64,000 nt of DNA from Gammaproteobacteria bacterium (GCA_965222155.1 CBDCTH010000012.1:512001-576000), one strand, 5' to 3'; positions 42,595-60,657 are shown, counted from the stretch's first letter. The notes: generated by a model not told the origin, from the letters alone. Numbers and translations: made by a program.

Positions 42595-42605
42595 ATTACT
42601 CTAAC

Positions 42606-43662: not shown

Positions 43663-43775
43663 TAATTCCTGGCTCCTTTTTTGTCCTGGCTGACTACAAG
43701 AATATAGCGCCATCATTTCATAAATGCGTTGCAGGAAAGCATAGCAGGAGCAATGACGGAGTCAAGCGATATAGC

Positions 43776-43835: not shown

Positions 43836-43931
43836 TACAACAGTGGCTAAAACCTGTCTTCAGACGTTGCAGCTACCCTGTACTCAACAGTATTCATCGC
43901 ACAGCGCCGCCATTAGCGGGAACTGCTGATC

Positions 43932-43941
43932 GCAAGCTTGC
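43932..43941. promoter_or_regulatory. GCAAGCTTGC palindrome upstream of cas6
   Basis: Same core as 46345 and 56592; TAAGAT -10-like hexamer at 43970. Confidence 0.5.
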
Positions 43942-44081
43942 CACCTGTTGCCGCGACAATGATTCACTGTAAGATAAATGCAGGACAAGGCTTTTGCCAT
44001 TATTATTCTCATAGCCTGTGCAATTTCAGGTCAAACAACTCCGGATAAACAGCTGTGGTGTGTAGTAAATGAGAGACTTCC

Positions 44082-45038
44082 ATGAATGCAACATTATTAA
44101 TTGAACCCCGATTACCGCTGGCATACTACCGGTTCAGGTTCCGTACAGAGGAACCAATACATTTGCCGAGCTACTCCGGTTCCGCCTGGCGCGGCGTATT
44201 CGGCCACAGCCTGAAAAAACTGGTCTGCGTTACCCGTGAACCACACTGTGAACCCTGCCTGTTGTACCGCAGCTGTATTTATCCCTATATCTTTGAAACA
44301 CCGCCCGACCCCGGCGTCGGCAAACTGCGCAAATACAATGCTGCGCCGCATCCGTTCGTACTGTGCCCGGGCGCTACCATGCGTGGTGAGCTGTCGGCGG
44401 ATACCGAGCACAGTCTGGACGTAACGCTGTTCGGGCACGGTAACCGTCATCTTCCCTATATCATTCATGCGCTTGGCCAGGCCGGGCAGCGCGGCATCGG
44501 GAAACAACGCGGAACGCTCGAATTGTTTGAAGTCCGGCAACGAGTACAGGAGACATGGCTTTCCATCTACCAGCCTGGCGGGACCTTACAACCTCATCCT
44601 GCAGCATGTGTCAGCCTGCCGGATTGCCCGGCGTCGTTGCAAATCCGGTTCCTGACACCCTTGCGTATAAAAGCCGGCGAGCGCCTCGTCACGCCGGACA
44701 ACTTTACTTTCAAGACCCTGTTTTCTACCCTGCTGCGGCGTATTTCCCTGCTCACTGCATTTCATACCGACACTCCACTGGAAACCGACTTTGCTGCGCT
44801 GACCCAGGCTGCCAGGGTGATGCCCGTGACGAATCATGACTTGCGCTGGCACGATTGGACCCGTTATTCCAGCCGGCAGGACAGCCTGATGCAGCTTGGC
44901 GGGCTGTTGGGCACGGTTGTTTTTGAGCACGACCAGCTTGCGCCTTTCTGGCCCTATCTCTGGCTCGGCCAGTGGACTCACACCGGCAAAAATACCAGCA
45001 TGGGTCTGGGCAAGTATGAAATCATCGAGGTAGTTTAA
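44082..45038 (+). CDS. cas6: CRISPR pre-crRNA endoribonuclease Cas6
   Basis: GSAWRGVFG, Cys cluster and C-terminal G-loop HTGKNTSMGLG. Confidence 0.93.
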   Translation: MNATLLIEPRLPLAYYRFRFRTEEPIHLPSYSGSAWRGVFGHSLKKLVCVTREPHCEPCLLYRSCIYPYIFETPPDPGVGKLRKYNAAPHPFVLCPGATMRGELSADTEHSLDVTLFGHGNRHLPYIIHALGQAGQRGIGKQRGTLELFEVRQRVQETWLSIYQPGGTLQPHPAACVSLPDCPASLQIRFLTPLRIKAGERLVTPDNFTFKTLFSTLLRRISLLTAFHTDTPLETDFAALTQAARVMPVTNHDLRWHDWTRYSSRQDSLMQLGGLLGTVVFEHDQLAPFWPYLWLGQWTHTGKNTSMGLGKYEIIEVV

Positions 45039-45066
45039 CTCGACTCATCCCCTGAACGACAATACC

Positions 45067-46338
45067 ATGGAAGCCGTAATGAAATATACTGATAGCGCAA
45101 TAAAGCCTGTACCGGAAAACAGAAATCCGGTGTCTGTATTGGAAAGTGGTAATCCGGTATCCAATGCAGGTTCAGCCAGCGCGCCGGGAGGTTTTGAAAA
45201 ACGCATTTTACTGTGTGTGGCAGGTTTATCGCCGCAGGTGATTACCGAGTCGCTTTATGCACTGGCAACACGGGAAGACAAATTCATCCCGACGGAAATT
45301 CATATCATTACCACCGCCGAAGGCGCCGGCAGGATACACCTGACCCTGTTTGAGGACGACCAGGAAGAACAACATTTTTACCGGCTCTGCGCTGATCTCG
45401 ACCTCAACCCCATGGACATCCGCTTCAACGCTGACACCATCCACCGGATAGGCCGTCAGCCAGACGACAATACACCCCTGTCTGCGTGTCCCGCACAGGC
45501 AGGACTGGACGACATCCGCAGTATCGGCGACAACGAGGCCGCGGCCGATACCATCACCGCCATCGTGCGCGACCTGACCGCCGACCCGCAAGCAGCCATC
45601 CATGCTTCTATCGCCGGTGGCCGTAAGACCATGGGCTTCTACCTGGGCTATGCCATGAGCTTGTTCGGACGTGAGCAGGACCGTTTATCCCACGTGCTGG
45701 TATCCCCACCGTTCGAATCGCACAATCAGTTCTACTACCCACCCAAAAAACCGAAAGTGTTGCGGGACAGGAACGACCGCCCGATACATACTCGTGATGC
45801 TGAAATCACATTGGCAGACATCCCTTTTGTACGACTACGGGGGCACTTGGACAAGGGCATACTCGGCGGAAGCATGAGTTATTCCGAAACCGTTTCCCGA
45901 ACACAGCACAACGTTAATCCGCCAAAGCTGATACTCGACAGCACCAACAAAACAATACAGTGTGGTGGTTACTCCATCCCCCTCGCTCCCAGCCTTTTTG
46001 CCTTTTATACCTGGTTTGCCCGGCGTCTGTTGGCGGGCAAACCGGGCATACACTGGAGCCAGGACGGGCTAGAAGAAGAATACCTCGAAGAATATGCCCG
46101 CATTGTTGGTGAGCACAGCGCGGAATATGATAATGCCTGTGTCAGCTTAAAAAAAGGCATGGACGAGGATTTCATTGACCCGAAAACAAGCAAGATCAAC
46201 AAACAGCTTGAAGAAACCTTAGGCAAGGAACCCGCCAGGCCTTACCTGATCAGTAAAACGGGTATTAAACCCGGAACTCGATACGGCTTGAAAGGTTTAA
46301 CGCTGAAAAAGGAGCAGGTACGATTTCTGGAGGAATGA
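45067..46338 (+). CDS. NE0113-family CARF protein (Csm6/Csx1-like, candidate ring nuclease) with probable C-terminal winged HTH
   Basis: GLSPQVITESLYAL, DDIR, SIAGGRKTMG and DRLSHVLV; no convincing HEPN domain seen. Confidence 0.85.
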   Translation: MEAVMKYTDSAIKPVPENRNPVSVLESGNPVSNAGSASAPGGFEKRILLCVAGLSPQVITESLYALATREDKFIPTEIHIITTAEGAGRIHLTLFEDDQEEQHFYRLCADLDLNPMDIRFNADTIHRIGRQPDDNTPLSACPAQAGLDDIRSIGDNEAAADTITAIVRDLTADPQAAIHASIAGGRKTMGFYLGYAMSLFGREQDRLSHVLVSPPFESHNQFYYPPKKPKVLRDRNDRPIHTRDAEITLADIPFVRLRGHLDKGILGGSMSYSETVSRTQHNVNPPKLILDSTNKTIQCGGYSIPLAPSLFAFYTWFARRLLAGKPGIHWSQDGLEEEYLEEYARIVGEHSAEYDNACVSLKKGMDEDFIDPKTSKINKQLEETLGKEPARPYLISKTGIKPGTRYGLKGLTLKKEQVRFLEE

Positions 46339-46344
46339 CAGAAG

Positions 46345-46395
46345 CGGCAAGCTTGCCGAATGTAAAAAACGAATCCCTTTTATAATAGTATGAGC
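46345..46395 (+). promoter_or_regulatory. CGGCAAGCTTGCCG palindrome plus TATAAT promoter of the cmr operon
   Basis: Perfect 14-bp palindrome at 46345-46358; TATAAT at 46381. Confidence 0.7.
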
Positions 46396-46458
46396 ACAAG
46401 CGGTCGAAATAACGGTTATATGCACGAGAATACCTGACATGGCAGACTCACAAAAAAT

Positions 46459-47598
46459 ATGCCCTCTGGAGCAGTCATAATGCAGAAGATGAAATACAAA
46501 GTCAGGTTTCTGACACCGGCATTTCTTGGCAACGCCGAGCAGAACGGTCAGTGGCGCACGCCACCGTTCAAGGCGTTGCTGCGACAGTGGTGGCGGGTGG
46601 CGGTGGCAAAGGAAGTTAGCTATGACTATACGCGGCTTCGTGAGCGAGAAGGCCGGTTATTCGGGCACGCTTGGCTCAAGGACGACAAAGGAAAAAGCTG
46701 GGCGTCGAAGAGCCAAGTTCGTCTACGCCTTGAACCTTGGTTGGCCGGCAGGATGACTAATGAAAAATGGCCGGGTGGACGAATCGAGAAGATAATAACG
46801 ACGCGCGATGGGAAAGGAAAGGTTCGAAGCGATCTATATCTTGGCTTTGGCCCGGTTCTGCCTAGTAAGAGAGACAACCGGAAAGATATTGAGTTGGCCC
46901 ACAATGCGATTGATGTGGATACAACGGCGACATTGCAGATATTATCCGAAGCACTGCCTGATGAACACCACTTCCTGTGTGACACCATTCAGTTGATTCA
47001 TTGGTTCGGAGCACTTGGATCTCGGAGTCGCAACGGCTGGGGTTCGCTCATTCTTGAGGGGCCTGCTATCGACCCAGCAAGCCGAATGATTGACACATCG
47101 CTACTTTCCCGTGTAACTCAATATTGGAAGGAATGCTTACATACCGATTGGGCGAACGCGATAGGTTGTGACGAACATGGTCCTTTGATCTGGGTGACCG
47201 GCCCAGTGAAGGATTGGCAGGCAGTGGTGAAGGAGTTTGCCTCACACCTCGTGAGCGTGCGTCGTGTAGCGAAGGACTTTCATCCGCGTGGGCAGGCTAA
47301 TGGTCTTCACGGTATTCATCTGCTCGGATACCCAGCGGGTAGCCGGTGGCAACTAAGCGCTTGGGGGAACGATGGGCGCCTTGCCAGCCCGTTACGGTTC
47401 AAAGTGATCGCTTGGGATGAGGGTCTTCTTCGGGGGATGATCTTCCACATTCCCTGCAACATTCCGGAATCGTTGAGGGACAAACTTGGGAACACCGGGC
47501 AGGATTGGTTGACAAAGAACCAAGAAGCGGTTTGGGCACAGGTGCATGAAAAGCTGGATAACTCACCGAGGCTTATCAGAATGAGTCAACCAGGATGA
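46459..47598 (+). CDS. cmr1: Type III-B RAMP Cmr1
   Basis: FLTPAFLG, LLRQWWR and GALGSRSRNGWGS; start may be 46480. Confidence 0.88.
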   Translation: MPSGAVIMQKMKYKVRFLTPAFLGNAEQNGQWRTPPFKALLRQWWRVAVAKEVSYDYTRLREREGRLFGHAWLKDDKGKSWASKSQVRLRLEPWLAGRMTNEKWPGGRIEKIITTRDGKGKVRSDLYLGFGPVLPSKRDNRKDIELAHNAIDVDTTATLQILSEALPDEHHFLCDTIQLIHWFGALGSRSRNGWGSLILEGPAIDPASRMIDTSLLSRVTQYWKECLHTDWANAIGCDEHGPLIWVTGPVKDWQAVVKEFASHLVSVRRVAKDFHPRGQANGLHGIHLLGYPAGSRWQLSAWGNDGRLASPLRFKVIAWDEGLLRGMIFHIPCNIPESLRDKLGNTGQDWLTKNQEAVWAQVHEKLDNSPRLIRMSQPG

Positions 47599-50500
47599 GC
47601 AGGCAGGACAAAATGACACTCTGGCATGCCAAACTTGCTGCCTGGACGCACGACCCGGCGGAGAAGGCGTTAGTTCTGCTGCGCGACCCCGCAGGCCACG
47701 AGTGGGGAACAGTCGCGGACCTCAGGGAGAGAATCTTCGGCCAACGGGACATCCCGCCGACATTGAAGAGCATAGTCGAGCGAGCTGATCACTGGGCCGC
47801 CGCGGCAGATCGCCCCCAATGGCCTCGTGATGAAAAGGACGGGCGTTATGTGCAGTGGGCGCGGGTTCGTTTCACTGAGAAACCGATACTCATACATCCC
47901 CTGTCAGGGGAAGATCTCGAGCTTGAAAAGCTATCAGATATTCCCGTCGAACATATCAAGGCAGTCAGCCGAGACCACTTTTCTAAACTGATCGATAGTG
48001 AGAAGAACGAGAAGAAAACCGCGTTGGCATTCTGGCGCTTCGGCCCGATGCTTAGAAAAACGAATGGGCAGCAGCCAGATGAACTCGGCGAGTTTTGGGG
48101 ACTTCTGCCTGCTGACACACGAATACCGGACCACACGATCTGGCAGCACCTGGACCTTACTGCGGCGTTTGCTACAGCCTTTCATGCCGATAAGAACAAC
48201 AACCCCGCGCTGCTGGCGGTCAGTTTCGGTCCGGTGCAGGAATTCATCGCCCAGGCGCGCACCACGTCCGATCTCTGGGCCGGGTCTCACCTGCTCTCCC
48301 GCATCGCATGGGAAGGGATCAAAGTGGTCTGCACCGAATATGGTCCTGATGCGGTGCTATTTCCTCAGTTGCGCGGCATTCCACAGGTGGACCTTTGGCT
48401 GCAGAACGAGATGAAACTTCCGAAGGACTGGTTCAAAGACGAAGAATGGAGAAAAGGTACCACTGATTCCAATCCGCTGTTTGCGGCAGCGTTGCCGAAC
48501 CGGTTTGTTGTGTTGGTGCCTGCTTCGGCGGCTACAGAGTTGGCGAAGTGCATCACTACGACGGTCCGTGATTGGGTGATTAGCAAAGGCAATGAAGCAC
48601 TCGACAAGTTACTTAAACGGGCGTGTATTTCTGACACTAACGTCCAGGAAGTATACGATCAGATTAAGGCGCAACTCACTGGCTTCCCGGAAGTCCACTG
48701 GACAGTTGTGCCGTGGTGCCCATTGATTGGCGACAGCGGTGGTGTACCGGATGTTACCAGTTTGTATGGCGTACTGAAGACGTTCCATGGAGAAGAGACG
48801 TCTCAGGGCTTTCTCGACTCGAATGCTTGGAAGCTGCTCTCCCGCGAGCTGACAGCCAATGGGCAGCGTTTCTATATGCCTAACGCCGGCGTTCTCTACC
48901 CCGCGCTGTATGATCTCCTCGACCGTTCGCAGGCGGCTGCGAAGTCCGTACGCACGTTCCGGCAGTTGGCTCAAAAGGGCTACCGCTGCTCGCTGTGCGG
49001 TGAACGGGAATGGCTCACCCATGATCGGGAACTTCTGAATCTGCCGCCGGGAAAGCGTCGCGAAGCGGGCAGCCTCTGGTGGAAACTGCAAGACACTAGC
49101 TGGGCTCGAAAAGGTGAGCATCTTTGCGCACTTTGCACCCTGAAGCGATTGTGGCCCAACCTCTACTGTGACGAAACCGCTGAGGCTCTTAACATCCATC
49201 TAACTCGTTTCGTCGTGTCCACTCACACGATGGCCCTTGCTACCAGCTTGGAACGGTGGTTGGAGCAACAGAATCGGAAGCGCCTGCCTGAACGATGGCT
49301 TAGCCAGTTAGAACCGCTGTCCCGTCAGAGAACCGTGGCGTTACCCCGCAAGCTCGCAAAACGCTTACTCGACGATGACCCAAATATACGCGCTATGCTT
49401 CGGGGGCTACCGCTCTTCCTCGAGGACCGCGACGAAGAGTCGCAGAGCGATGAATCCGATGACCGAGACAAAACAGAAATGCTTACCAGGGAACTCGACT
49501 GTGAGCTAAAAAAGGTGCTCGGTCACAAACCGGAAGCCTACTACGCGATGATTCTCATGGATGGCGACCGTATGGGCGCGTGGTTGTCCGGTCAGGGCGA
49601 GGACGGAGAACGCTATCGGTTGCCGTTCGAATGCGCTTGGCATCCTCAGCTACGCACCAGGCTCAGGGGCCGCCATGCAAAGGATGATCTAGCGACATAT
49701 CTTAGTGAAAAGCGTCCCGTCTCACCAGCCCGTCATATGGCGATTTCAAGCTCGCTCAACGGATTCGCTCTACATATCGCTCGCTACATCATCGAGGATG
49801 TTGGTAAAGGTAAGCTGATTTATGCTGGTGGTGACGACGTGCTGGCTATGGTCTCCGTGGACGACTTGTTGGCAATCATGTTCCTGTTGCGACTCGCTTA
49901 TAGTGGCATCTCTCCAATCGAATACGAGGATAAGTTACAACTTGAGAAACTAACCGGTCTATCATCCAGTCGTTTCGACCTTCGTCGTGGGTATGTGACA
50001 CTTGACGATAAGCTGTATCGCATGATGGGGAACCGGGCCACTGCCTCTGCCGGCGCCGTGGTCGCTCACCATAAGGCACCTCTCGGTTTCGTGCTTCGCA
50101 AGTTACGGGAGGCGGAGCAGCGGGCGAAGAAAGACGGCGGGCGCGATGCCTTTGCTATTTCGTTGCTCAAGCGTTCCAGCGGTGCAACTCAGCTTATCTG
50201 CCCTTGGTTCATGCCACAATTGAGTAAACTCGCGGGCGGGCAGAAGGCTATGCACAATCCGGAAGAAACTCCTATGGGTCAACTCATCCTGTTGCGCGAT
50301 CGGTTCGCGAGCCAAACGTTCTCTCGTCGCGCCGCGTACCTCACCCAGGGCTGGCTGACCGAAACTCCCGAATCCGCACTCAGTGCCATGCTCGGTTACC
50401 AGTTCAAGCAACAGACCATCGGCGACGAGGCTGACAAGCAAGATGCCGAGTCCGTCGGTAAGACTATCGGGGAACTGGCTATCGCCATCAATGCGTCGTC

Positions 50501-50633
50501 GAGTGGCCGGGAAACCGAGAGCGGCTATCACCGGCGAGAATTACGGCTTCGGTCCTTCATTGAAGATTTTCTTGCCGTTGCCGAGTTTCTTGCCCGAGAA
50601 GGGCGAACGAAAGCCCCGGTGACGAGGGAGTAA
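47595..50633 (+). CDS. cas10: Type III-B Cas10/Cmr2
   Basis: THDP, SDLWAGSHLLS, CSLCGE, DGDRMG and YAGGDD cyclase motif. Confidence 0.96.
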   Translation: MSRQDKMTLWHAKLAAWTHDPAEKALVLLRDPAGHEWGTVADLRERIFGQRDIPPTLKSIVERADHWAAAADRPQWPRDEKDGRYVQWARVRFTEKPILIHPLSGEDLELEKLSDIPVEHIKAVSRDHFSKLIDSEKNEKKTALAFWRFGPMLRKTNGQQPDELGEFWGLLPADTRIPDHTIWQHLDLTAAFATAFHADKNNNPALLAVSFGPVQEFIAQARTTSDLWAGSHLLSRIAWEGIKVVCTEYGPDAVLFPQLRGIPQVDLWLQNEMKLPKDWFKDEEWRKGTTDSNPLFAAALPNRFVVLVPASAATELAKCITTTVRDWVISKGNEALDKLLKRACISDTNVQEVYDQIKAQLTGFPEVHWTVVPWCPLIGDSGGVPDVTSLYGVLKTFHGEETSQGFLDSNAWKLLSRELTANGQRFYMPNAGVLYPALYDLLDRSQAAAKSVRTFRQLAQKGYRCSLCGEREWLTHDRELLNLPPGKRREAGSLWWKLQDTSWARKGEHLCALCTLKRLWPNLYCDETAEALNIHLTRFVVSTHTMALATSLERWLEQQNRKRLPERWLSQLEPLSRQRTVALPRKLAKRLLDDDPNIRAMLRGLPLFLEDRDEESQSDESDDRDKTEMLTRELDCELKKVLGHKPEAYYAMILMDGDRMGAWLSGQGEDGERYRLPFECAWHPQLRTRLRGRHAKDDLATYLSEKRPVSPARHMAISSSLNGFALHIARYIIEDVGKGKLIYAGGDDVLAMVSVDDLLAIMFLLRLAYSGISPIEYEDKLQLEKLTGLSSSRFDLRRGYVTLDDKLYRMMGNRATASAGAVVAHHKAPLGFVLRKLREAEQRAKKDGGRDAFAISLLKRSSGATQLICPWFMPQLSKLAGGQKAMHNPEETPMGQLILLRDRFASQTFSRRAAYLTQGWLTETPESALSAMLGYQFKQQTIGDEADKQDAESVGKTIGELAIAINASSSGRETESGYHRRELRLRSFIEDFLAVAEFLAREGRTKAPVTRE

Positions 50634-50637
50634 TGCA

Positions 50638-50922
50638 ATGCATCCGTTGATTGAAGCGCATCGTGCAGAAATTTTAGCCTTGGCTAAGCGCCGTGGCATT
50701 AATAATGTGCGAGTGTTCGGTTCCATGGCCAGGGGCGACGCGGATGAAGCCAGTGATGTGGACCTGCTGGTATCTATTCCTCGCAACAAGAGCGGCCTCG
50801 CGCTTGGCGGGCTGCTCATGGATGTTCAGGAGTTGGTGCAACGCCGAGTGGATATAGTAAGTGACCAGGGCTTGCATCCGGCTCTACGCGAACGCATACT
50901 TTCCGAGGCTGTACCACTATGA
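50638..50922 (+). CDS. Minimal nucleotidyltransferase (MntA-type antitoxin)
   Basis: FGSMARGDADEASDVDLL matches GSx10DxD. Confidence 0.92.
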   Translation: MHPLIEAHRAEILALAKRRGINNVRVFGSMARGDADEASDVDLLVSIPRNKSGLALGGLLMDVQELVQRRVDIVSDQGLHPALRERILSEAVPL

Positions 50923-51281
50923 GATCTGCTGCCGAATCCGACAAAGTCTTGCTAATTCATATTCAGAGTAGTATTGAAAACATTCGCCAGTACACTGGCG
51001 TAAAACGGGATACTTTCTTCGGTTCGCAGTTGGTCCAGGATGCAGTGCTGCGTAACCTTCAGACGCTCGCCGAATCTACGCAACGACTCAGTAAGCCACT
51101 CAAGGCCACGGAACCAGGCATTCCGTGGCAGGAGATAGCCGGTTTTCGAAACGTACTTACGCATAGTTATCTGGGTCTTGATCTTGACGTGATATGGAAT
51201 GTACTGGAACATGATCTGGATGCATTGTCCGAGGCCGTTGAGCGCATGACGCAGTTTATCGAGGGAGACGTTTCTTCGTGA
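50919..51281 (+). CDS. HEPN/DUF86 ribonuclease toxin (HepT-type)
   Basis: IPWQEIAGFRNVLTHSY matches Rx4HxY; ATGA overlap with the MNT gene. Confidence 0.92.
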   Translation: MRSAAESDKVLLIHIQSSIENIRQYTGVKRDTFFGSQLVQDAVLRNLQTLAESTQRLSKPLKATEPGIPWQEIAGFRNVLTHSYLGLDLDVIWNVLEHDLDALSEAVERMTQFIEGDVSS

Positions 51282-52450
51282 CCACAAACCTCTTCCTGGA
51301 ACCACTCGACGTGCTCTACCTACGTGGTAATCGCCTGTTCCAAGGCGCAGGCGCGCATGGCGAAGCATTGATGCCACCCTGGCCGTCACTCGCTGCTGGG
51401 GCTATTCGCTCGCGAATGCTGGCGGATGCGGAGGTGGACTTCGAGTCCTTCGCGGGTGGCTCACTGATCGATAATCCAGGTATCGATCATGCTCTGGGCA
51501 CTCCGGAGAAGCCCGGTGCTTTCCGTGTTTCCAACTTCGTCCTTGCTCGTGGCGGCTCGCGTGCAATGCGACCGAACGAGGCAAGTGTTGAACTTTGTGT
51601 ACCACTGCCAGCCGATGTGGTCATCACGGATGGTGAAGGACTCGGTAATGCCACCTATCTGATCCCCAGCGAGTTGCCTCTGAAAACCAGTGCGGTTCTT
51701 CCGATGGTTCCGGCGTTGCGGACGGTGAGCCCGGGTAAACCAGTCTCTGGCCTGTGGCTGAATTGCAATGGTTGGTCGGCGTACCTGAAGGGCAAACCAA
51801 TTGAGAAAGATCACCTGCTGCGGAGTTCTGAGCTTTGGGGACTCGACCCCCGTCTTGGCATTGCACTGGACCGCACGAGTGGAACCACTGATACTGGTAT
51901 GCTTTATACCGTCGAAACAGTTGGGCTGTGCGATGATGTCGGGTTTCTTGTGCGTATTGATGGCGCGGATGGTTTACTACCGAATTCAAATTTGCTTCGA
52001 CTTGGAGGCGACGGGCGGGGTTCGACAACCAAGGTGGTCAAGGTCGAATGGCCGGAGCCCAACTGGGAACGTGTTGAACAGGAAAGAAGGTTCCGTGTTG
52101 TACTCGCCACCCCCGGCATTTTCCCGGATGGGTGGCAACTGCCGGGTTGCACAGCCGATGGGTGGTGGTCAGGTCCGCAAGGGGTGCGGGCTAAGCTGGT
52201 GACTGCCACAGTCTCCCGCGCCAGCGTGGTGAGCGGGTGGGACCTCGTCAGTAGGCAGCCCAAGGCGGCCCTGCGGACTGCTCCCGTAGGCTCGGTCTAC
52301 TGGTTTGAGAACCTCGAAGGCGGAACGGTGGGCCTTCGCAAGCTTGCGGATGAGGGCTTATGGCCCTGTATGATAGACAATGACATCGACTTGGCCCGAC
52401 GAGCGGAAGGGTTCAATAATATCTATATTGCGGCTTGGCCGCAGGTCTAG
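51278..52450 (+). CDS. cmr3: Type III-B Cmr3
   Basis: LEPLDVLYLR, PPWPS, RLGGDGR, SGWDL and PVGSVY. Confidence 0.93.
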   Translation: MTTNLFLEPLDVLYLRGNRLFQGAGAHGEALMPPWPSLAAGAIRSRMLADAEVDFESFAGGSLIDNPGIDHALGTPEKPGAFRVSNFVLARGGSRAMRPNEASVELCVPLPADVVITDGEGLGNATYLIPSELPLKTSAVLPMVPALRTVSPGKPVSGLWLNCNGWSAYLKGKPIEKDHLLRSSELWGLDPRLGIALDRTSGTTDTGMLYTVETVGLCDDVGFLVRIDGADGLLPNSNLLRLGGDGRGSTTKVVKVEWPEPNWERVEQERRFRVVLATPGIFPDGWQLPGCTADGWWSGPQGVRAKLVTATVSRASVVSGWDLVSRQPKAALRTAPVGSVYWFENLEGGTVGLRKLADEGLWPCMIDNDIDLARRAEGFNNIYIAAWPQV

Positions 52451-52465
52451 AAGCGAGGTAGGAAT

Positions 52466-53413
52466 ATGTACCAGGCACAGAAAGCACTCTTTTTTTACTG
52501 CGTAAGTCCCGTCCATATGGGTGCAGGTACTGCCATCGGGCTGATAGACAACCCGATACAACGCGAGCGACATACTGACTACCCCTTATTCGCTGGTTCC
52601 GGCATCAAGGGAGCAGTGCGTCATCACTTCCATGCCGATGGCTGGAACAAAGACGAGGAACTGCTCAACCGTATCTTTGGGCCCAAGAATTCCGAGTTTG
52701 CAGGAGCAGTAAGTTTCGGTGATGCTCAGTTAGTTGCCTTTCCGGTGCGCTGTACCAAACACGCCTATGTTTATGCCACATCACCGACTGCCTTGGCGCG
52801 CACGCGGCGGCAACTCGAACACTTGCAGGTCACCCCTGATTGGAAAATAACTGAAGTCGAGGAAGGCGGTTGTCGTGTCGTGCCCGGATCGGGTTTGACC
52901 GAAGGAACGAGCCTGAATCTGGAGGTATTTCAGTACACTGCAACAGACGAAAAGGAGCTTGCAAAGATTGCCGGTTGGCTTGCGGACCAAGCATTGCCGC
53001 CGGGCGATGCCTATGCCTTCTTCCGTGACAAGCTCAAAACCGACCTCGTGTTGTTGCCGGATGAGGACTTTACTTACTACATCAAGAACGCCACTGTGGT
53101 CGAGCCCCACGTGCGTATTGATGACAAGACAGGAACCGCCGACGACGGTGGCCTCTTCTACACTGAGAATCTACCGCCGGAATCGTTACTCCTGGCTCCA
53201 TTGATGGCTTCGGGAGAGCGACGCGGGCGCCATGATGGTAGTAATGACCATATAATGTGTGCGCAGGAGGTTATGGAGAAGGTACTTGATGGACACAATG
53301 AAGGAGTAGGGCTGAATGGCCTATGCTTACAGCTTGGTGGCGATGCCACCACGGGACGCGGTCAGGTCATTGTTACGTCAGTAGAGGAGAAGGATAATGA
53401 TGCGGACACTTGA
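52466..53413 (+). CDS. cmr4: Type III-B Cmr4
   Basis: HMGAG, IDNPIQRE (catalytic Asp) and QLGGDATTGRG. Confidence 0.96.
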   Translation: MYQAQKALFFYCVSPVHMGAGTAIGLIDNPIQRERHTDYPLFAGSGIKGAVRHHFHADGWNKDEELLNRIFGPKNSEFAGAVSFGDAQLVAFPVRCTKHAYVYATSPTALARTRRQLEHLQVTPDWKITEVEEGGCRVVPGSGLTEGTSLNLEVFQYTATDEKELAKIAGWLADQALPPGDAYAFFRDKLKTDLVLLPDEDFTYYIKNATVVEPHVRIDDKTGTADDGGLFYTENLPPESLLLAPLMASGERRGRHDGSNDHIMCAQEVMEKVLDGHNEGVGLNGLCLQLGGDATTGRGQVIVTSVEEKDNDADT

Positions 53414-53750
53414 ACAACAGCGGGCCGAGTATGCTTGGAAGATAGTACAGGAAGGCTGCAACGATAAATACACCAGTCTTGCCAAAGGCGCGCCAGCACT
53501 TATCATGGCTAACGGCCTGATGCAGAGCCTGGCCTTCTACGAGTCGAAAGGTCAGGACCACCATAAGACATTAAACAGGCACATTCTTGGTTGGTTGTAC
53601 AAACAGAAACTGGTCAAAACCGAAGATTTTGTAACTGCGATGAACGATCTGCACAAGACCAGTTCGGTTAACTACCGCCGCGCAACCCAGGAGGCTCTGG
53701 ATTTCCTGAAGTGGGTGCGGCAGTTCGCTCCTGCGGCGCAGAGCGAATAG
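53397..53750 (+). CDS. cmr5: Type III-B Cmr5
   Basis: TLEQQRA, PALIMANGLMQSLAF; small helical protein. Confidence 0.92.
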   Translation: MMRTLEQQRAEYAWKIVQEGCNDKYTSLAKGAPALIMANGLMQSLAFYESKGQDHHKTLNRHILGWLYKQKLVKTEDFVTAMNDLHKTSSVNYRRATQEALDFLKWVRQFAPAAQSE

Positions 53751-53773
53751 CGAGAGGAAGGATCGATCTATCT

Positions 53774-54979
53774 ATGCCTATAGCCGCCGTACCTGAATAC
53801 CTCGGAAATGATTTGAGCGATTGTCCGCCAGGGCATCGTTTTACACTTTATGGCGCGTTCTGGGAAAAACAGAGCTGGAAACGGGTGAAAAATATTGAGC
53901 TGACACATCTGAAGCCGGTTTCCAAAAACTTGTCTCCTGCCACCGCCACACTGCGCGACGCGCTTATCCAACGTCAGCACTGTCTTGCAGAAAGGCTTGG
54001 CGAGGGCGTGTCGAGTTACTTGACCAAATCGGTTTCTCCCTTCGTAACCGGTACCGGTATTGAGCACCCGCTGGAAAATGGAATGGCCTTTGTCAATCCA
54101 TACGGTTTGCCCTATCTTCCCGGCTCCGGCGTTAAAGGCGCGCTGCGCAAGGCAGCCGAGGAATTGGCAGATGCGGCAACAGAAGAAGATAACGGATGGA
54201 CGAAGAAGGCGATAGAAGTATTGTTTGGAAAGCAACCTCGCTCCGTAACCGACAAAGCTGAACGCGGCGCGCTGACGTTCTGGGATGTCTTTCCCGACTG
54301 CTCAAAGCTGTGTATCGAGATAATGACCCCTCACTATAGTGACTATTATCAGGGGAACACCTCGCCTCACGACGCTGGCGCTCCGATACCGATCTACTTC
54401 ATCGCTGTGCCCGCAGAGAGCGACTTTGCTTTCCATGTGCAATGCGATGTACGCTGTTTGAAGGACAAGGCTGATTTGTCAGGACAATGGCGAAAGCTGC
54501 TCGACAGCGCATTCGATCACGCCTTCGATTGGCTTGGCTTCGGCGCCAAGACGGCTGTCGGATATGGTCATATGCGCATTGATACAGCTGCGACAAAACG
54601 GAACGAAGACGAGCGCAGAAAGAGCGCGGTGCAGGCAACGGAACGCCGAGAACGAGAGAAGCAGGAACAAGATCTACAGGATGCACGGGGGCATCTCCCA
54701 GAAGATGCCGTTTGGATAGAAAAACAATTTATGGCCGGTGAATGGTCCGATACAAACCGTTTCCTGGTTGAGGTGGAGAAATTTCTTGCCCACAAGCGGG
54801 ATCTCAGTAACGAAGCATATGATCGCTTGGTGGGTGAGATATCAGATCGTTGGCCTGGAATACTGGAAAACCCTGACGTTGTCAGGGGCAAGAAAAAAAA
54901 GCCAAAATACAAGCCTAGACCGCGTGAATTGGCGAAGAAACTGATCGCGTTGAAACCGGAAGCTAAAAAGAGTCCGTGA
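53774..54979 (+). CDS. cmr6: Type III-B Cmr6 with C-terminal extension
   Basis: YGLPYLPGSGVKG, IMTPHY and GFGAKTAVGYG; ATG 53774 chosen as start. Confidence 0.94.
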   Translation: MPIAAVPEYLGNDLSDCPPGHRFTLYGAFWEKQSWKRVKNIELTHLKPVSKNLSPATATLRDALIQRQHCLAERLGEGVSSYLTKSVSPFVTGTGIEHPLENGMAFVNPYGLPYLPGSGVKGALRKAAEELADAATEEDNGWTKKAIEVLFGKQPRSVTDKAERGALTFWDVFPDCSKLCIEIMTPHYSDYYQGNTSPHDAGAPIPIYFIAVPAESDFAFHVQCDVRCLKDKADLSGQWRKLLDSAFDHAFDWLGFGAKTAVGYGHMRIDTAATKRNEDERRKSAVQATERREREKQEQDLQDARGHLPEDAVWIEKQFMAGEWSDTNRFLVEVEKFLAHKRDLSNEAYDRLVGEISDRWPGILENPDVVRGKKKKPKYKPRPRELAKKLIALKPEAKKSP

Positions 54980-55003
54980 AAGAACTAATCCTCATGAACG
55001 ACG

Positions 55004-56215
55004 ATGTCCGAAATCCATATCTGCCTGTTATCTGACCAATTACTCCCGAATCTCATCCCGATTCTCATGGAACGGCCGGTTTGTGTCTATCTTGTCGCGA
55101 CCCCGGAGATGGTGAAAAGGGGACGCGATGTACGGATGCGGCGATTGCTGCGCCATGAGAAGATCGAACCGCGCATTCGCGAAGGCGCACCAAGCACCGG
55201 TATCGATAAAATCCGCGCATTCGCCGAGAAGCTGACGCATGAGATAGTGAAGGACAAGGACAGCGCCGGCAGGACTCTCGTGCTAAATGCAACCGGTGGG
55301 ACGAAGTTGCTCTCCATGGGATTTGTCGAGGTGTTCCGTGCGCACTTGGAAGGCTATCCGTTGCGGGTCATCTATACCGATACGGAGCATCAGGTGCTCG
55401 AAACCCTTGTACCTCGTGGGTTGGATGCCACGCCGATGGGAGGTGTGCTGCGGGTAGAGAGCTATCTGGCCGCGCAAGGAATGACATTCGTCTCGGCAAT
55501 GTCGGATGACTTGGAGTGGCGGTCCGTCGTTCAGGAGCGATGCAAACTCACTGTATACCTTGCTAACGAATGCGAGCGCCTCGGCGGTTTTCTTGGAATG
55601 CTGAATGGGCTTGTACACGGAACTGGACGGCAGTCGGGTGCACTTGCATCGAACGGAGGCGAGTTGCTCCATCCTGAACAACGACTCAACCGGTCACCCC
55701 GAGGATTGTACCGGGAGGTGCTGAAACGTGTCGCCGATGTGGGTCTGATCCAATGGGTCGACGCCAAGACGGTCCGCTTCAACACGGTCGAGGCTGCACG
55801 CTATCTCGGTGGCCATTGGCTGGAGGAGTACGCTTGGTTGGTCGCTGACGCCGCGGGCCTGCAAGACGCTCGGTGCTCGGCAACCGTGCGGTGGGAGTTA
55901 CAGAGCGGACCCGAGGCGCCGACCAACGAGTTCGACTTGCTGGCGGTGCATAACAACCGGCTCCTGCTCGTCGAGTGCAAGACAGGACAACAAGCTGCCG
56001 GTGAGCAGGCAGTTGCCACGCGACTGGAGAGCTTGAGCCGGAACGCGGGAGGTTTGTTCGGCTTATCTCTGCTTGTGTCCGCCAGAGCTCTCCCGACTAC
56101 GATGAGAAATCGTTGCCAGAGCCTTGGCATCAGGCTCCTTGAACAAGGAGAGGTAAAGAGGCTTGCGGATTACGTCGATCAATGGCGAGATACCGGCGCG
56201 CTTACATCCCGGTGA
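55004..56215 (+). CDS. Card1/Can2-like (DUF1887) CARF plus PD-(D/E)xK nuclease
   Basis: SDQLLPN, NATGGTK, GHWLEEY and NEFDLL..VECKT. Confidence 0.88.
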   Translation: MSEIHICLLSDQLLPNLIPILMERPVCVYLVATPEMVKRGRDVRMRRLLRHEKIEPRIREGAPSTGIDKIRAFAEKLTHEIVKDKDSAGRTLVLNATGGTKLLSMGFVEVFRAHLEGYPLRVIYTDTEHQVLETLVPRGLDATPMGGVLRVESYLAAQGMTFVSAMSDDLEWRSVVQERCKLTVYLANECERLGGFLGMLNGLVHGTGRQSGALASNGGELLHPEQRLNRSPRGLYREVLKRVADVGLIQWVDAKTVRFNTVEAARYLGGHWLEEYAWLVADAAGLQDARCSATVRWELQSGPEAPTNEFDLLAVHNNRLLLVECKTGQQAAGEQAVATRLESLSRNAGGLFGLSLLVSARALPTTMRNRCQSLGIRLLEQGEVKRLADYVDQWRDTGALTSR

Positions 56216-56477
56216 GTCGCGGAGTTGCCGACCCGCTGAGTCACCCCTGGGCGGAGTAACCCAGACCTGTCTGGTACTGCGCGGCCGTGTGCCCATCCAA
56301 TCTTTACGACTTTAATTGAAGTAAAAAAGATAGTAGCCTGTAACGGTTTTCAAGCTATGAGGGTAGTAGCCAATGCCGAGAGTCAGCGCAAAACGACAAA
56401 TCGACACTTCCCGTCGACCAGTGTAATGAAGTGGGGATACGCCCGGGTGATGAGTACCGGAGCATCGTTGAGGTGGC

Positions 56478-56585
56478 AAACCTGCCAAGCCGTACCTGAT
56501 CAGTGATATCAGCGTCATTCACTGATAATATAACCTGAAGGCATTGATGCTGAAAAAGGAACAGGTACGGTTCCCGGAAGAATGA
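56478..56585 (+). pseudogene. Remnant 3' end of a second NE0113-type CARF gene
   Basis: KPAKPYLIS..**..LKALMLKKEQVRFPEE* versus EPARPYLIS..LKGLTLKKEQVRFLEE* of 45067-46338. Confidence 0.85.
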
Positions 56586-56591
56586 CGAGGA

Positions 56592-56642
56592 CGGCAAGCT
56601 TGCCGAATGTAAAAAGACGGGGTTTATTGTATTAGTATGAGC
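56592..56642 (+). promoter_or_regulatory. CGGCAAGCTTGCCG palindrome and promoter of the csm operon
   Basis: Same palindrome, AATGTAAAAA and TAGTATGAGC at identical offsets to 46345-46395. Confidence 0.7.
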
Positions 56643-56666
56643 TATTAAACGGCAAGAACACTTAAT

Positions 56667-59351
56667 ATGACTGATCCAGCAAATTTCATTACACCATCAG
56701 CACGAGTGGCGCTCGCAGCTTTTTTGCACGACCTCGGCAAGTTTGCTGAGAGGGCAAAAATTGATACTTCCTCTGAAATTCTCGAAAGTAATCAGCAGAT
56801 TTACTGTCCGCATCATAAAAAATCAACAGACGATAAAGGCTGGTTTTCTCATAAACATGCAGCCTACACCGCTATCGCTTTGGACCGGATTGAAGCACAC
56901 TTACCACCGCTCAAAGGCCAGAATGTGGAACCGTTTGCAACCTGGGGTTCGGATGACGTCGATGATTCACTGATCAATGGCGCGGCCAAGCACCACAAAC
57001 CCGATACTTTTCTGCAGTGGATTATTGCCACCGCTGATCGCGTTGCATCCGGCTTTGAACGTAACGAGTTCGAAGAATATAACAAGGCAAGGGAAGGCAC
57101 AGCTACCGGTAAAGATCATTACACAGCCCGACAGTTGACCTTATTTGAACAAATCCGATTGTATGACAAAAGCCGCAAACAGACGTATCGTTATCGTTAT
57201 CGCTATAAACTTAAGCCGCTTTGCCCTGATGCGTTAGTGCCTGTGCCAGCAGAAGGCTATGAGCCGGAAAGTCGCGCTGAAGCTCAAAGGGAATATAAGG
57301 CACTCTGGGACGGTTTTACCGAAGGACTTGGAAAGATACCTGAATCCCATCGAAAGAATCTACCTCTCTGGCTGGATCACTTCGAATCGCTGTGGGGTTG
57401 CTATACTCACGCGATACCATCTGCTACTGCGTTTAATACTCGACCGGACGTATCACTTTACGATCATTCCCGTGCAACAGCGGCACTGGCGGTTGCGCTG
57501 TGGCGGTATCACCATGAGCGTAAGGATGATACAGAAAGAGCAACCCGAGTGATGCGAAACAGGGAAGATTGGAATGAGCAGAAGTTGCTGCTCATCCAGG
57601 GTGATTTTTTTGGTATCCAGGATTTCATTTTTGCTACTGGTGGTGAAACCCGGAAACGTGCAGCCAAGCTGTTACGGGGACGTTCGTTCTATATCTCTCT
57701 GTTGACCGAATGTGCCGCTCTTAAAATATTAGACAAGCTGGGGCTACCGGCAACCAGCCAGATTACTAATGCCGCCGGTAAATTCCTGATCGTTGCGCCG
57801 AATACTGAAGGTATACGCAATACTTTGGGCCAGGTTCAACAGGAGTTGGACGAATGGTTCAAGACTAATAGCTGGGCAGTCTCAGGTATCGGTTTAGCAG
57901 CTTTACCTGCTTGCTGCAACGATTTTCTGAAACAACAGGGAGACGAAGAAAACACGCCTTTTCAACGCCTCATGACAAGACTGTTTGAGGCGTTGGAAAA
58001 TGCCAAGCTGAAACGTTTCGACCTGTGCAATCAGCAACCTGAAGCAGCGATTTTTACCGGCTTTTTAGAGCAATTTCATAATAATAAGGGAGTTTGTGAG
58101 ATCGATGGGCACTCTCCGGCAACGCAAGTCGATGATGGGATATCCATAAGTGACTTGGCGCATGACCAAATCAGGGTCGGTGAGTATCTGACCAAATACG
58201 AGCGGTTTTTGATCACCCGCAATGAACTTGATCATAATACCCTGCGGCTACCCATTTTTGGCTACCATGTCAGCTTCACTCGTGACGAAGAAATAACCGG
58301 TCAATTCAGCCGGTTGGCTATCGAGGGCAAGCTGTTGCGTGCTGTTGATTTTTCTTTACCTCAAGCCAGCGCTACCGCGCTCTGGAACGGTTATGCACGG
58401 CGCTATATTAACGGCTACGTGCCCAGGTTCCGTCAGGATGATCTTGACAATAAGGACAAATACAAATCTGTAGAAGAGGCAATTGGCATTGAGCCTGATG
58501 CTGTCAAATCGCTTAATCACATTGCTTGTGAAGGCGCTGGAATTCATGCTCTGATGACCCTGAAAGGTGACGTCGATAATCTGGGGTTGATCTTCCAACA
58601 GGGTCTTGCCCGGTCGGATAAAAATGACAAAAATGGCCATAAAGGAGGGCTGACATTCGCCAAGATGGCGGCCTTATCACGGCAAATGGATGCTTTTTTT
58701 ACGATTTACCTGCCTTACCGATGCCAAAAGGATTATCCCGATACCTATACCGTATTTGCCGGTGGTGACGACTTTTTCCTGATTGGCCCCTGGCATTCAC
58801 AAATCAGATTGGCCAAGGAAATGCAGCAATGGTTCAGTGAATACGTAACGCGTAATCCCGAAGTGCACTTCTCGGTCGGTTTATTCATGACCAAGCCAGG
58901 TCTGCCGATTCGCTATTTGGCAGAACAATCTGAGCGGGCACTGGAAAAGGCCAAAAAGTATAATTCACAGGACTGCCAACCTGCACCAAAGAATGCCGTT
59001 ACCTGTTATGGGCACAGTATCGGCTGGGACAGTTTCAAGAAACTGATAGAGCAATCGGATGAACTGGAAACCCTGGCTGGCGAAATTGAACTCAGCACAG
59101 GTTATCTGTATAGCCTGTTGCAGTTTACTGACATGCAGTCGGAGATCAGCGAAAAACCGGAAAAGGCTTTATGGCACTCGTGGTTTGCCTATCGGACAAA
59201 GCGAATGCTTGAACGTATTCGCGGCCTGGATACCAGGCAATGGCATAATAAGCTGGCCGATGCCATCGCTCACCGGGGCATAGAGACATACGCCCAGGCT
59301 TACAAAATTGCCCTGTTTACTTATCTTTATAAACATCGTAAAGAGGATTGA
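56667..59351 (+). CDS. cas10: Type III-A Cas10/Csm1
   Basis: LHDLGK HD domain, VSLYDH, LRGRSF, KGDVDNLG and FAGGDD. Confidence 0.97.
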   Translation: MTDPANFITPSARVALAAFLHDLGKFAERAKIDTSSEILESNQQIYCPHHKKSTDDKGWFSHKHAAYTAIALDRIEAHLPPLKGQNVEPFATWGSDDVDDSLINGAAKHHKPDTFLQWIIATADRVASGFERNEFEEYNKAREGTATGKDHYTARQLTLFEQIRLYDKSRKQTYRYRYRYKLKPLCPDALVPVPAEGYEPESRAEAQREYKALWDGFTEGLGKIPESHRKNLPLWLDHFESLWGCYTHAIPSATAFNTRPDVSLYDHSRATAALAVALWRYHHERKDDTERATRVMRNREDWNEQKLLLIQGDFFGIQDFIFATGGETRKRAAKLLRGRSFYISLLTECAALKILDKLGLPATSQITNAAGKFLIVAPNTEGIRNTLGQVQQELDEWFKTNSWAVSGIGLAALPACCNDFLKQQGDEENTPFQRLMTRLFEALENAKLKRFDLCNQQPEAAIFTGFLEQFHNNKGVCEIDGHSPATQVDDGISISDLAHDQIRVGEYLTKYERFLITRNELDHNTLRLPIFGYHVSFTRDEEITGQFSRLAIEGKLLRAVDFSLPQASATALWNGYARRYINGYVPRFRQDDLDNKDKYKSVEEAIGIEPDAVKSLNHIACEGAGIHALMTLKGDVDNLGLIFQQGLARSDKNDKNGHKGGLTFAKMAALSRQMDAFFTIYLPYRCQKDYPDTYTVFAGGDDFFLIGPWHSQIRLAKEMQQWFSEYVTRNPEVHFSVGLFMTKPGLPIRYLAEQSERALEKAKKYNSQDCQPAPKNAVTCYGHSIGWDSFKKLIEQSDELETLAGEIELSTGYLYSLLQFTDMQSEISEKPEKALWHSWFAYRTKRMLERIRGLDTRQWHNKLADAIAHRGIETYAQAYKIALFTYLYKHRKED

Positions 59352-59355
59352 TGTT

Positions 59356-59841
59356 ATGAATAATCGAAGCCGTTCATCGGGAAAAAAACCTTGGCAAAAT
59401 ACTCAACAATCGGATGACGACCGGCCTCCCTTCAGCAAAGATCGGATTGTTCTAGCTAGCGGTGAGTTGCCAACTGATCTGTTCAGTCAGGTCGCAGAGG
59501 ATGCAGCCAAACATGTTGCCGCATGGGATGGCGAGAAAGCTGGTGGAAACGCCAGCAAACCAACACAATTGCGCAAATTCTATGACGAAATTTGTATGTG
59601 GGACAGCAAGAGCCAGCGCGATATTGACCGCTTTGACGAATATCTACCTTTTATCCTGATGTTGAAGGCGAAAGTCGCTTATTCCCAAGGCCGTAAACAT
59701 GTAGAAAAGACCTATGTCGACATACTCAATCATTGCCTGGCTGAGCTTGAGAAAAACCCAAAATGGAAAACTCTGCACAACCTGAAACTGTTTATGGAAG
59801 CCTTTACCGGTTTTTATAAAGTTTACGGGTCCAAGAATTAG
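59356..59841 (+). CDS. csm2: Type III-A Csm2
   Basis: TQLRKFYDE, MLKAKVAY and FMEAFTGFY; ATG 59356 follows GAGGA. Confidence 0.92.
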   Translation: MNNRSRSSGKKPWQNTQQSDDDRPPFSKDRIVLASGELPTDLFSQVAEDAAKHVAAWDGEKAGGNASKPTQLRKFYDEICMWDSKSQRDIDRFDEYLPFILMLKAKVAYSQGRKHVEKTYVDILNHCLAELEKNPKWKTLHNLKLFMEAFTGFYKVYGSKN

Positions 59842-59852
59842 GAGGTATCTAC

Positions 59853-60611
59853 ATGCAACTTACAGCAATCAAAACCCTAACCGGGGAAATTGAATTACTT
59901 ACTGGTCTGCACATCGGTGGGGACGACGCCGATATGCACATCGGCGGTATCGACAATCCAGTCATCAAACACCCCGTTACTCAGGAGCCTTACATTCCCG
60001 GTTCCAGCATCAAGGGAAAAATGCGCAGCCTGCTCGAATGGGAACTAGGAGTGGTCGGTCAAACGAATGGCGCACCACTTGGCTACAAGCATATTAAAGA
60101 ACTGGCCGACGACCAGGAACAGGATGCCAAAGTTATCCTCAAACTGTTTGGTGGCGCACCAGACGGTCATGACAACATGGAATTGGTCGAGGAAATCGGC
60201 CCGACCCGCCTGGCTTTCTGGGACTGTTCCCTTGACTCCGAATGGGTGGAGAAAATGGACGCTAAAAATCTCCTGTTAACCGAGGCCAAGATGGAAAACA
60301 GTATCGACCGCATCAGAGGGGTTGCAATCAACCTGCGTCAGACCGAGCGTGTGCCCGCCAGTGCAAAATTCCAATTCAATCTGACGTTGCGCAAACATGA
60401 TGATGATGACGATTTACTGGATACCATTCTCAAAGGATTACGTTTGATCGAAATTTCAGGACTTGGAGGTTCCGGTTCACGGGGTTACGGCAAGGTACGG
60501 TTCAACAACCTGGAATGCGAGGGTGAGTCTCTTGATGAGCGCATGAAGGCCATAGACCTGTTTAATTCTAAAGCGGAGGGCAATAACATTGAGTCTGATA
60601 TGGTCTCATAA
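59853..60611 (+). CDS. csm3: Type III-A Csm3
   Basis: TGLHIG, GGIDNPV (catalytic Asp), PGSSIKGKMR and GGSGSRGYG. Confidence 0.97.
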   Translation: MQLTAIKTLTGEIELLTGLHIGGDDADMHIGGIDNPVIKHPVTQEPYIPGSSIKGKMRSLLEWELGVVGQTNGAPLGYKHIKELADDQEQDAKVILKLFGGAPDGHDNMELVEEIGPTRLAFWDCSLDSEWVEKMDAKNLLLTEAKMENSIDRIRGVAINLRQTERVPASAKFQFNLTLRKHDDDDDLLDTILKGLRLIEISGLGGSGSRGYGKVRFNNLECEGESLDERMKAIDLFNSKAEGNNIESDMVS

Positions 60612-60657
60612 GCGTATGAAAAACGTGGATTGGTTTAATTCTGCCGCCTGAGCAAAT

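Follow-up and report, generated by a model that had tools for sequence, protein, structure and literature searches.

The type III locus and its repeated palindrome

We analysed a stretch of 64,000 nucleotides from a gammaproteobacterial genome (GCA_965222155.1, CBDCTH010000012.1:512001-576000), here called the window, which carries a type III CRISPR-Cas locus with a gene for an NE0113-family protein and several copies of a short palindrome, likely the operator of that protein. The order of the genes was derived from Pfam and NCBIfam, and all of them lie on the plus strand: cas6 (44082..45038; Pfam CRISPR_Cas6, E 9.6e-20), the NE0113-family gene with its CARF domain (45067..46338, 423 amino acids; PF09623, TIGR02584), cmr1, cmr2/cas10, MNT, HepT, cmr3, cmr4, cmr5 and cmr6 (46459-54979), card1/can2 (55004-56215), csm1/cas10, csm2, csm3, csm4 and csm5 (56667..63233) and csx1 (63441..64000), which runs off the window. 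Beyond the window end the locus (L001) continues with small open reading frames (ORFs), csm6, a further copy of the palindrome, cas2-cas1-cas1-cas2 and a CRISPR array. The NE0113-family gene possibly starts at M5 (45079), and residues 1-40 of the protein were modelled with low confidence.

MNT and HepT form a nucleotidyltransferase/RNase toxin-antitoxin pair (50638-51281), located within the cmr operon between cmr2 and cmr3; the pair has the same insertion point in the relatives L009, L011 and L048, and in L002 it is placed between NE0113 and csm1. The adaptation module is doubled (cas2-cas1-cas1'-cas2, L001:4000-6333, which is G000:C12:580000-582333), the second Cas1 being matched over its N-terminal part only. 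The array is large (L001:6525-10136, 37-nt repeat GTTTGAAACCAAGACCTGATTAAGAAGGGATTAAGAC) and it was the sole one seen near the two type III effector modules.

The core palindrome GCAAGCTTGC, of 10 bp, occurred four times in the window, starting at 43932, 46347, 52338 and 56594, against 0.06 occurrences expected by chance, and none of 100 shuffles reached four. The first copy (TCGCAAGCTTGCCA, 43930..43943) fits the extended consensus YSGCAAGCTTGCSR and is found 150 bp before cas6. The second and fourth copies are the same perfect 14-mer, CGGCAAGCTTGCCG, placed at 46345-46358, 6 nt past the NE0113 stop codon and about 100 bp before cmr1, and at 56592-56605, 63 bp before csm1/cas10. The third copy (TCGCAAGCTTGCGG, 52336..52349) lies within cmr3, near its 3' end, and cmr4 starts about 120 bp further on. 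The fifth one lies 3.9 kb past the window end (core at L001:3949, whole site L001:3947-3960), 51 bp before the first cas2. The initial annotation of this DNA had reported the 14-mer at 46345 and 56592, and we reproduced both positions. It had counted three sites, though there are actually five, the intragenic cmr3 site and the one of the adaptation operon being the additional ones.

Regarding the whole genome (4,553,329 bp), we found nine copies of GCAAGCTTGC, five of them clustered in 24 kb (C12:555932-579958), and four of these five stand before operons. As many as 859 of the 1024 possible 10-bp palindromes are present in the genome, with a median count of 3; therefore the total of nine is unremarkable and the clustering is the notable part. 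Furthermore, four of the five copies in the locus fit YSGCAAGCTTGCSR, whereas none of the four copies elsewhere does so, judging by their printed flanks. We rejected an origin as restriction sites, related either to the AAGCTT in the core or to an MmeI-family gene of the window, because the motif is clustered in a single locus and is neither spread nor avoided genome-wide. A near-match, CGGCAAGTTTGCTG (56735-56748), was also rejected as a sixth operator, since it corresponds to the codons of the Cas10 HD motif (H-D-L-G-K-F-A) in csm1; similar strings appeared in csm1 of the NE0113-negative genomes L118 and L125.

Two of the copies are related by descent, as had been cautioned from the start. 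The regions 46290-46400 and 56530-56645 are homologous in a DNA alignment, and their identical run includes the palindrome and the next 11 bases. Moreover, the last 38 codons and the stop codon of a second NE0113 gene persist as a relic on the plus strand at 56472..56585 (tblastn E 7e-8, 58% identity, two in-frame stops), which indicates that the csm module formerly had its own cas6-NE0113 head. In the Nitrospirales relatives L003 and L018 the csm module still has such a head. The flanks of the three other copies (43932, 52338 and the one past the window end) are unrelated, which for the first of them is what had been stated before.

The site in other NE0113 loci and its promoter layout

We retrieved 80 loci from other genomes (1.31 Mb) by means of the NE0113 protein alone, at 42-73% identity to the query. 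Judging by the titles of their records, they span Nitrospirales, gamma-, beta- and alphaproteobacteria, a cyanobacterium, Phycisphaerales, Bryobacteraceae and Binatia. The exact core GCAAGCTTGC occurred 118 times in 60 of these loci, and the form GCAASSTTGC 151 times in 68 of them, while each of nine control palindromes of like composition occurred between zero and two times. Among the 20 loci that had no exact core, 17 showed a form with one mismatch, often in the same places (for instance GCAACCTTGC and ACAAGCTTGC).

The largest class of the 151 sites (51) lay within 400 bp upstream of NE0113 itself. The others were upstream of cmr1 (18), upstream of cas2 (16), within the 3' end of cmr3 (15), upstream of csm1 (14), upstream of cas6 (11) or in other cas-linked classes (8), and 18 were left unclassified. 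The five sites of the window's locus match position classes that recur in the relatives, and in compact loci such as L094, L021 and L053 the only non-csm gene beside the sites is NE0113.

The consensus of the 151 aligned sites was Y-S-GCAA-SS-TTGC-S-R, and we found no conservation outside these 14 bp. The centre of the site is its most invariant part and covariation was not seen in the outer flank pair (CG 78, CA 25, TG 24 and TA 15 cases). Given this centre, the absence of covariation and the absence of a T-run, the pattern in the sequence is characteristic of a protein with two-fold symmetry bound to duplex DNA and not of a hairpin. The variants of the centre (GC versus CC/GG) change together within a locus: we counted seven mixed loci against a shuffle mean of 22.1, and none of 5000 shuffles was as low. 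Four loci (L084, L097, L101 and L104) carry a symmetric variant, TCACAAGCTTGTGA, in place of the site some 54 bp ahead of NE0113, and L092 has TGACAAGCTTGTCA at a similar position. Sites that change together in each locus, with a symmetric change of the half-sites, are what would be expected from a co-evolving dimeric factor.

In order to relate the motif to the gene we used a sample of 401 genomes of the window's own phylum, 32 of which had a PF09623 match, and we scored three sets of regions for RCAAGCTTGY. The 32 NE0113 regions (431 kb) held 18 such motifs in 11 regions, nearly all of them beside NE0113, 51 bp before cas2, or within cmr3 or csm2. None was found in 20 cas10 regions (295.5 kb) of genomes lacking a PF09623 match, nor in six cas10 regions (64 kb) on other contigs of NE0113-positive genomes. 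The contrast of 118 cores in 60 of the 80 NE0113 loci with none in the 20 NE0113-negative type III regions agrees with the connection between motif and gene that was drawn in the initial annotation.

The sites also have a preferred distance to a candidate -10 box. In 43 of 110 intergenic sites of the relatives a TAnnnT box starts 38 bp from the core start, all other offsets being below 15%, and a GGACA-like -35 element is found at offsets 16-20. If the box is read as -12 to -7, the operator centre is predicted near -45.5/-46.5, with the 14-mer abutting the -35 hexamer. In the window the predicted cas6 promoter (43948..43975, plus strand) has a -35-like TTGCCG (43948-43953), a 16-bp spacer and a -10-like TAAGAT (43970-43975), the latter at offset 38. 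The boxes of the cmr and csm operons, both TAGTAT, and that of cas2 in L001, TAACTT, are at offset 39.

Two candidate -10 boxes on the plus strand precede cmr1 (46381..46391), namely TATAAT (46381-46386) and TAGTAT (46386-46391), and the candidate csm box is at 56633..56638. It had been noted earlier that the TATAAT has no good -35, and indeed by inspection of the sequence we found no acceptable one 16-18 bp upstream of it and a sigma-70 scan showed no plus-strand promoter there. The same proposal had placed the palindrome centre near -41. TATAAT is at offset 34 and would put the centre at -41.5; however, TAGTAT is common to both duplicated copies at the same distance, and this conserved box places the centre near -45.5/-46.5 instead. 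As for cas2, a distance of exactly 51 bp separates the core start from its start codon in L001; the same value was seen in four of the 80 loci and in L088 and L091, and in L001 the ATG of the first cas2 follows the -10-like box by 6 nt. This exact spacing fits a leaderless transcript starting on the A of the ATG.

The sites within genes deserve separate treatment. The window's core copy in cmr3 falls on codons R354-K355-L356-A357. Among the relatives the first codon of the cmr3 site varies between CGC, GGC and TGC (R, G or C) and its last two bases are always GC. Leu356 is CTT in all 16 cases that have K-L, whereas the leucine two codons upstream uses CTT, CTC, CTG, CTA and TTG. In L025 the cmr3 site is retained two codons out of register. 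Thus, nucleotides are kept while the amino acid varies, and from this codon comparison selection in cmr3 is acting on the DNA and not on the peptide. Of the 19 intragenic sites, seven had the TAnnnT box at offset 38, namely five cmr3 sites and the two csm1 sites, and the window's own cmr3 copy has a sole box at offset 31. Going by these sequences, in some loci the coding sequence that precedes cmr4-6 or csm2-5 seems to contain operator-promoter modules.

The NE0113-family protein and the surrounding genes

The protein encoded at 45067-46338 matched PF09623 (Cas_NE0113) with E 2.5e-39 (135.7 bits, cut-off 23) and TIGR02584 with E 1.2e-69 (234.5 bits, cut-off 80.65), and its full-length AlphaFold2 model had a mean predicted local distance difference test score (pLDDT) of 87.3. 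Foldseek assigned residues 45-270 approximately (45199..45876, plus strand) to a CARF domain, which would contain the dimer interface and the presumed ligand pocket, with probability 1.00 to the CARF domain of Cad1 (9c6a, TMt 0.68) and further matches to TtCsm6, Can2, Cam1 and Sso2081.

The C-terminal part, around residues 285-423 (45919..46335, plus strand), was assigned by VIA-align to a winged-helix domain of the OmpR/PhoB type. Modelled alone, the last 148 residues reached a pLDDT of 90. The top 22 rows of VIA-align were all OmpR/PhoB-family DNA-binding domains (Z 6.2-8.8, with 85-101 of about 100 residues covered), the best ones being GlnR (Z 8.8, root-mean-square deviation 3.1 over 94 residues), BaeR (Z 8.8) and CadC (Z 8.6). 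The model has the features of the fold, that is, an N-terminal beta-sheet, a helical core with a recognition helix and a C-terminal beta-hairpin wing, and this domain is strongly conserved across the family. A plain sequence search of the protein against the PDB gave no match at E <= 1. The OmpR/PhoB assignment comes from VIA-align, and therefore the likeness is structural and not at the sequence level.

No nuclease family was matched in Pfam, and no Csa3 family in Pfam or NCBIfam; Csx14 (TIGR03642) was matched with 25.9 bits, below its cut-off of 90.35. The description given in the initial annotation, a CARF domain with a winged helix-turn-helix tail and no evident nuclease domain, agrees with these results. 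The tail did prove to have a winged-helix DNA-binding fold in the model, though its type is OmpR/PhoB and not the MarR-like winged helix-turn-helix of Csa3.

The prediction supports a symmetric homodimer with an interface in residues 151-283 and a score of 0.79, against 0.02 for the best of three controls, although the pass may reflect likeness to solved CARF dimers. Of the proteins with solved structures, 20 of 30 that form pairs of one chain passed the mark used for this score, as did one of 23 that are single chains. Agreement between the runs covers at least 64% of the contacts, the pLDDT of the partner is at least 78, and the predicted interface includes the invariant G184-G185-R186-K187-T188.

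Some other genes of the region may be recorded here. Immediately before the cas6 operator the minus strand carries a small coiled-coil ORF that is CCDC90-like (43324-43716) and has a 21-bp tandem repeat of 5.7 copies (43402-43521). The CRISPR modules are flanked by further small ORFs: a CopG-like ORF, below cut-off, and an ORF of 185 amino acids assigned to no family at 42264-43163, and a RelE-like ORF together with two unknowns between csx1 and csm6 (L001:1044-2506). The MmeI-family gene mentioned above encodes a full-length type IIL restriction-modification enzyme in which each of the five MmeI domains was matched (22214-25189, minus strand). A HipA-like kinase toxin gene with HipA_C and Couple_hipA domains is found at 34848-36140 on the minus strand, and a protein of 981 amino acids with FG-GAP and RTX calcium-binding repeats at 6398-9343, where a 171-bp tandem repeat of 4.8 copies extends from 7562 to 8381.

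A candidate regulator of the type III locus

We consider it likely, from the comparison of loci and from the structural models, that the NE0113-family protein has the 14-bp dyad YSGCAAGCTTGCSR as its operator. The protein would act as a homodimer joined via its CARF domains, the winged helix of each subunit reading one GCAA half-site, and the operators would abut the -35 region of the promoters of the cas6-NE0113, cmr, csm and cas2-cas1 operons, with an additional one inside cmr3, ahead of cmr4-6. The operator before cas6-NE0113 implies that NE0113 would regulate its own gene. In this manner a single sensor could coordinate the processing of CRISPR RNA (crRNA), two type III effector complexes and the uptake of spacers. 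A regulon of this kind was already the proposal of the initial annotation, and every part of it that could be tested by comparative and structural computation held.

A response of this regulator to cyclic oligoadenylate (cOA) is somewhat less assured; we regard it as probable by analogy, in view of the CARF fold and of the cOA-dependent effectors encoded in the locus (Card1/Can2, Csx1 and Csm6). The CARF pocket would bind cOA made by Cas10 during infection, most likely cyclic tetra-adenylate (cA4) to judge by the Card1/Can2 and Csx1 effectors, and this binding would re-orient the two winged helices and thereby change the output of the promoters. That signalling induces the locus, either through activation or through relief of repression, is the least certain part of this reading, and we propose it tentatively, at not quite even chances. 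Degradation of the ligand by the CARF domain, with a reset of the switch as the outcome, is a further possibility, suggested by the NCBIfam name of TIGR02584, by the weak Csx14 match and by the grouping of Csx14 with Crn1 (PMC12409355). It seems rather doubtful that all of this is combined in a self-resetting master switch of type III immunity, in which cOA binding would induce the operons, the regulator's own gene included, and slow cleavage of the messenger would follow. Such a switch would imply positive feedback and a coupling of interference to spacer uptake, and through the operators within the coding sequence of cmr3 and csm1 the backbone subunits would gain internal promoters that depend on the signal.

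Several results weigh against assigning the operator, and a ligand response, to NE0113. Among the 80 loci, 12 have no GCAASSTTGC and three have no site at all even with one mismatch allowed. In the window's own phylum 21 of the 32 NE0113 regions have no RCAAGCTTGY, including all those with the most divergent proteins (28-35% identity), so the operator belongs to a subfamily and not to PF09623 as a whole. The NE0113-negative control is small (20 regions), its cmr genes are 22-32% identical to those of the window, and it is not matched by lineage. Genome-wide, the 12-mer GGCAAGCTTGCC is present in 223 of the 401 genomes, many of them NE0113-negative, and it is absent from several NE0113-positive ones. 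We dropped these counts as a test of dependence on the gene, since some negative genomes had 9-13 copies and several positive ones none; being uninformative, they were replaced by counts at the level of the locus, which are the only ones that separate the groups. As for the C-terminal domain, its Foldseek matches were nearly all of the OmpR/PhoB family, yet the best E was 0.042 and none reached 0.001; Trans_reg_C of Pfam was unmatched at E <= 0.01, and a profile compared with PDB sequences gave only E 0.39-0.66 (KdpE, PhoB and RstA). A scan for the sigma-70 consensus listed no plus-strand promoter at three window operators, the cas6 promoter included, so the window promoters must be weak matches to the consensus; such a weak match fits activator dependence without proving it. 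Finally, the specific promoter binding of S. solfataricus Csa3 in vitro was unchanged by cA4 (PMC8844856), and hence a CARF protein with a winged helix need not respond simply to a ligand.

Among the alternatives, the best surviving one accepts the operator and gives it to another protein, either a host factor or a small co-travelling protein that is not annotated, with NE0113 acting on the nucleotide signal only, for instance as a ring nuclease whose winged helix is structural, as in Crn1. The fold matches do include Crn1/Sso2081, a ring nuclease with CARF and helix-turn-helix domains, TIGR02584 is now named 'CRISPR-associated ring nuclease Csm6' in NCBIfam, and the weak Csx14 match points towards the Crn1 group (PMC12409355). 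We nevertheless judge it improbable, because only loci that encode NE0113 show the identical site in one phylum after another, and a host factor would need to be conserved across all those phyla. About one third of the sites in the relatives are directly upstream of NE0113 itself, and compact loci offer no other candidate gene, although conserved small ORFs were not searched systematically across the 80 loci. The dyad of the site also fits the predicted symmetric NE0113 dimer, whose DNA-binding domain is conserved in the family.

It is far less probable that the element works as RNA or single-stranded DNA, be it a hairpin that terminates or attenuates transcription after NE0113 or the mark of a processing site. 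Two window copies do follow a stop codon by 6 nt (that of NE0113 in one case, that of the relic in the other), and the 14-mer is able to form a 5-bp stem with a 4-nt loop. However, there is no T-run on either strand and a terminator scan listed nothing at the four window sites; AGCT, which would be the loop, is conserved more than any other part, covariation is absent from the flanking pair, and most copies of the relatives are upstream of genes at a fixed distance to a -10 box. Lastly, the idea that the repeats are functionless by-products of shared descent or of coding constraint can draw on the two duplicated window copies, on the R-K-L-A codons of the cmr3 copy and on the csm1 near-match, which does come from Cas10 HD-motif codons and is also seen in NE0113-negative genomes, but it is largely refuted by the unrelated flanks of the remaining copies, by a site that stays invariant across 60 loci although its surroundings have fully diverged, and by nucleotides more conserved than the amino acid in cmr3.

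With NE0113 as the protein that binds the operator, which is the reading we prefer, the system would be of a known kind, a cas-gene regulator composed of a CARF domain and a winged helix, and on the grounds of sequence comparison and modelling the new elements would be a different DNA-binding domain, a defined operator and a regulon extending over the type III genes. To our knowledge, the Csa3 proteins of type I-A loci are the only CARF transcription factors that have been studied. Csa3a and Csa3b of Sulfolobales type I-A systems resemble NE0113 in their N-terminal CARF dimer and C-terminal winged helix. Unlike Csa3, NE0113 is carried by bacteria, its putative regulon comprises two type III effector operons, cas6 and its own gene, and its proposed operator has another sequence. 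Csa3 binds cA4 as well as pseudo-palindromic sites upstream of the adaptation operon and of the CRISPR leader, and it controls cas genes (PMC8844856, PMC8699464), although its response to the ligand is still debated (PMC8844856). It was docked on the complex of OhrR, a member of the MarR family (PMC8844856), whereas the domain of NE0113 is of the OmpR/PhoB type.

Crn1/Sso2081 and Csx14 share with NE0113 the architecture of CARF and helix-turn-helix, but the Csx14 match is far below the cut-off. We know of no DNA operator for Crn1. The OmpR/PhoB domains are like the C-terminus of NE0113 in their beta-sheet platform, helical core and beta-hairpin wing (Z up to 8.8 over 94-100 residues). Regulators of this family bind beside or over the -35 region, and direct repeats are typical of their sites. 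NE0113 differs from them in having no receiver domain and an extra helical insertion, and its site is an inverted repeat that fits a two-fold dimer instead of a direct repeat.

Makarova et al. 2014 (PMC4012209) had predicted that Csa3 and NE0113, as proteins that have no effector domains, are direct regulators of transcription. That is the same family as ours; in the sections of the paper available to us no operator, regulon or promoter geometry is given. Hoikkala et al. 2024 (PMC11229360) set the predicted transcription factors aside 'for a future study'. Our search of the literature on NE0113, CARF regulators and ring nucleases found no operator, regulon or DNA-binding fold for this family, though the 2020 CARF classification or supplements may hold a domain assignment. 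The motif strings themselves appeared in unrelated cloning or primer contexts, and none of the matches listed concerned CRISPR.

Thus, these results would provide a defined and testable system for a very large family, as 4756 proteins were matched at E <= 0.001 among the 8000 candidates scored. The system offers an exact 14-bp operator, a predicted fixed layout of the -10 box and a set of putative targets (crRNA processing, Cmr, Csm, adaptation and its own gene), and the natural operator variants can be used as specificity controls. The carriers of the module include records titled as isolates, such as Thiocapsa sp. KS1 (L011) and Nitrosomonas sp. HPC101 (L052). An operator-regulator pair of this type could also serve as a cOA-responsive genetic switch. 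As regards the biology of type III immunity, it is worth taking into account that operators and predicted promoters are embedded in the coding sequence of cas genes, and that the sites before the effector and adaptation operons suggest a link of interference signalling to spacer acquisition.

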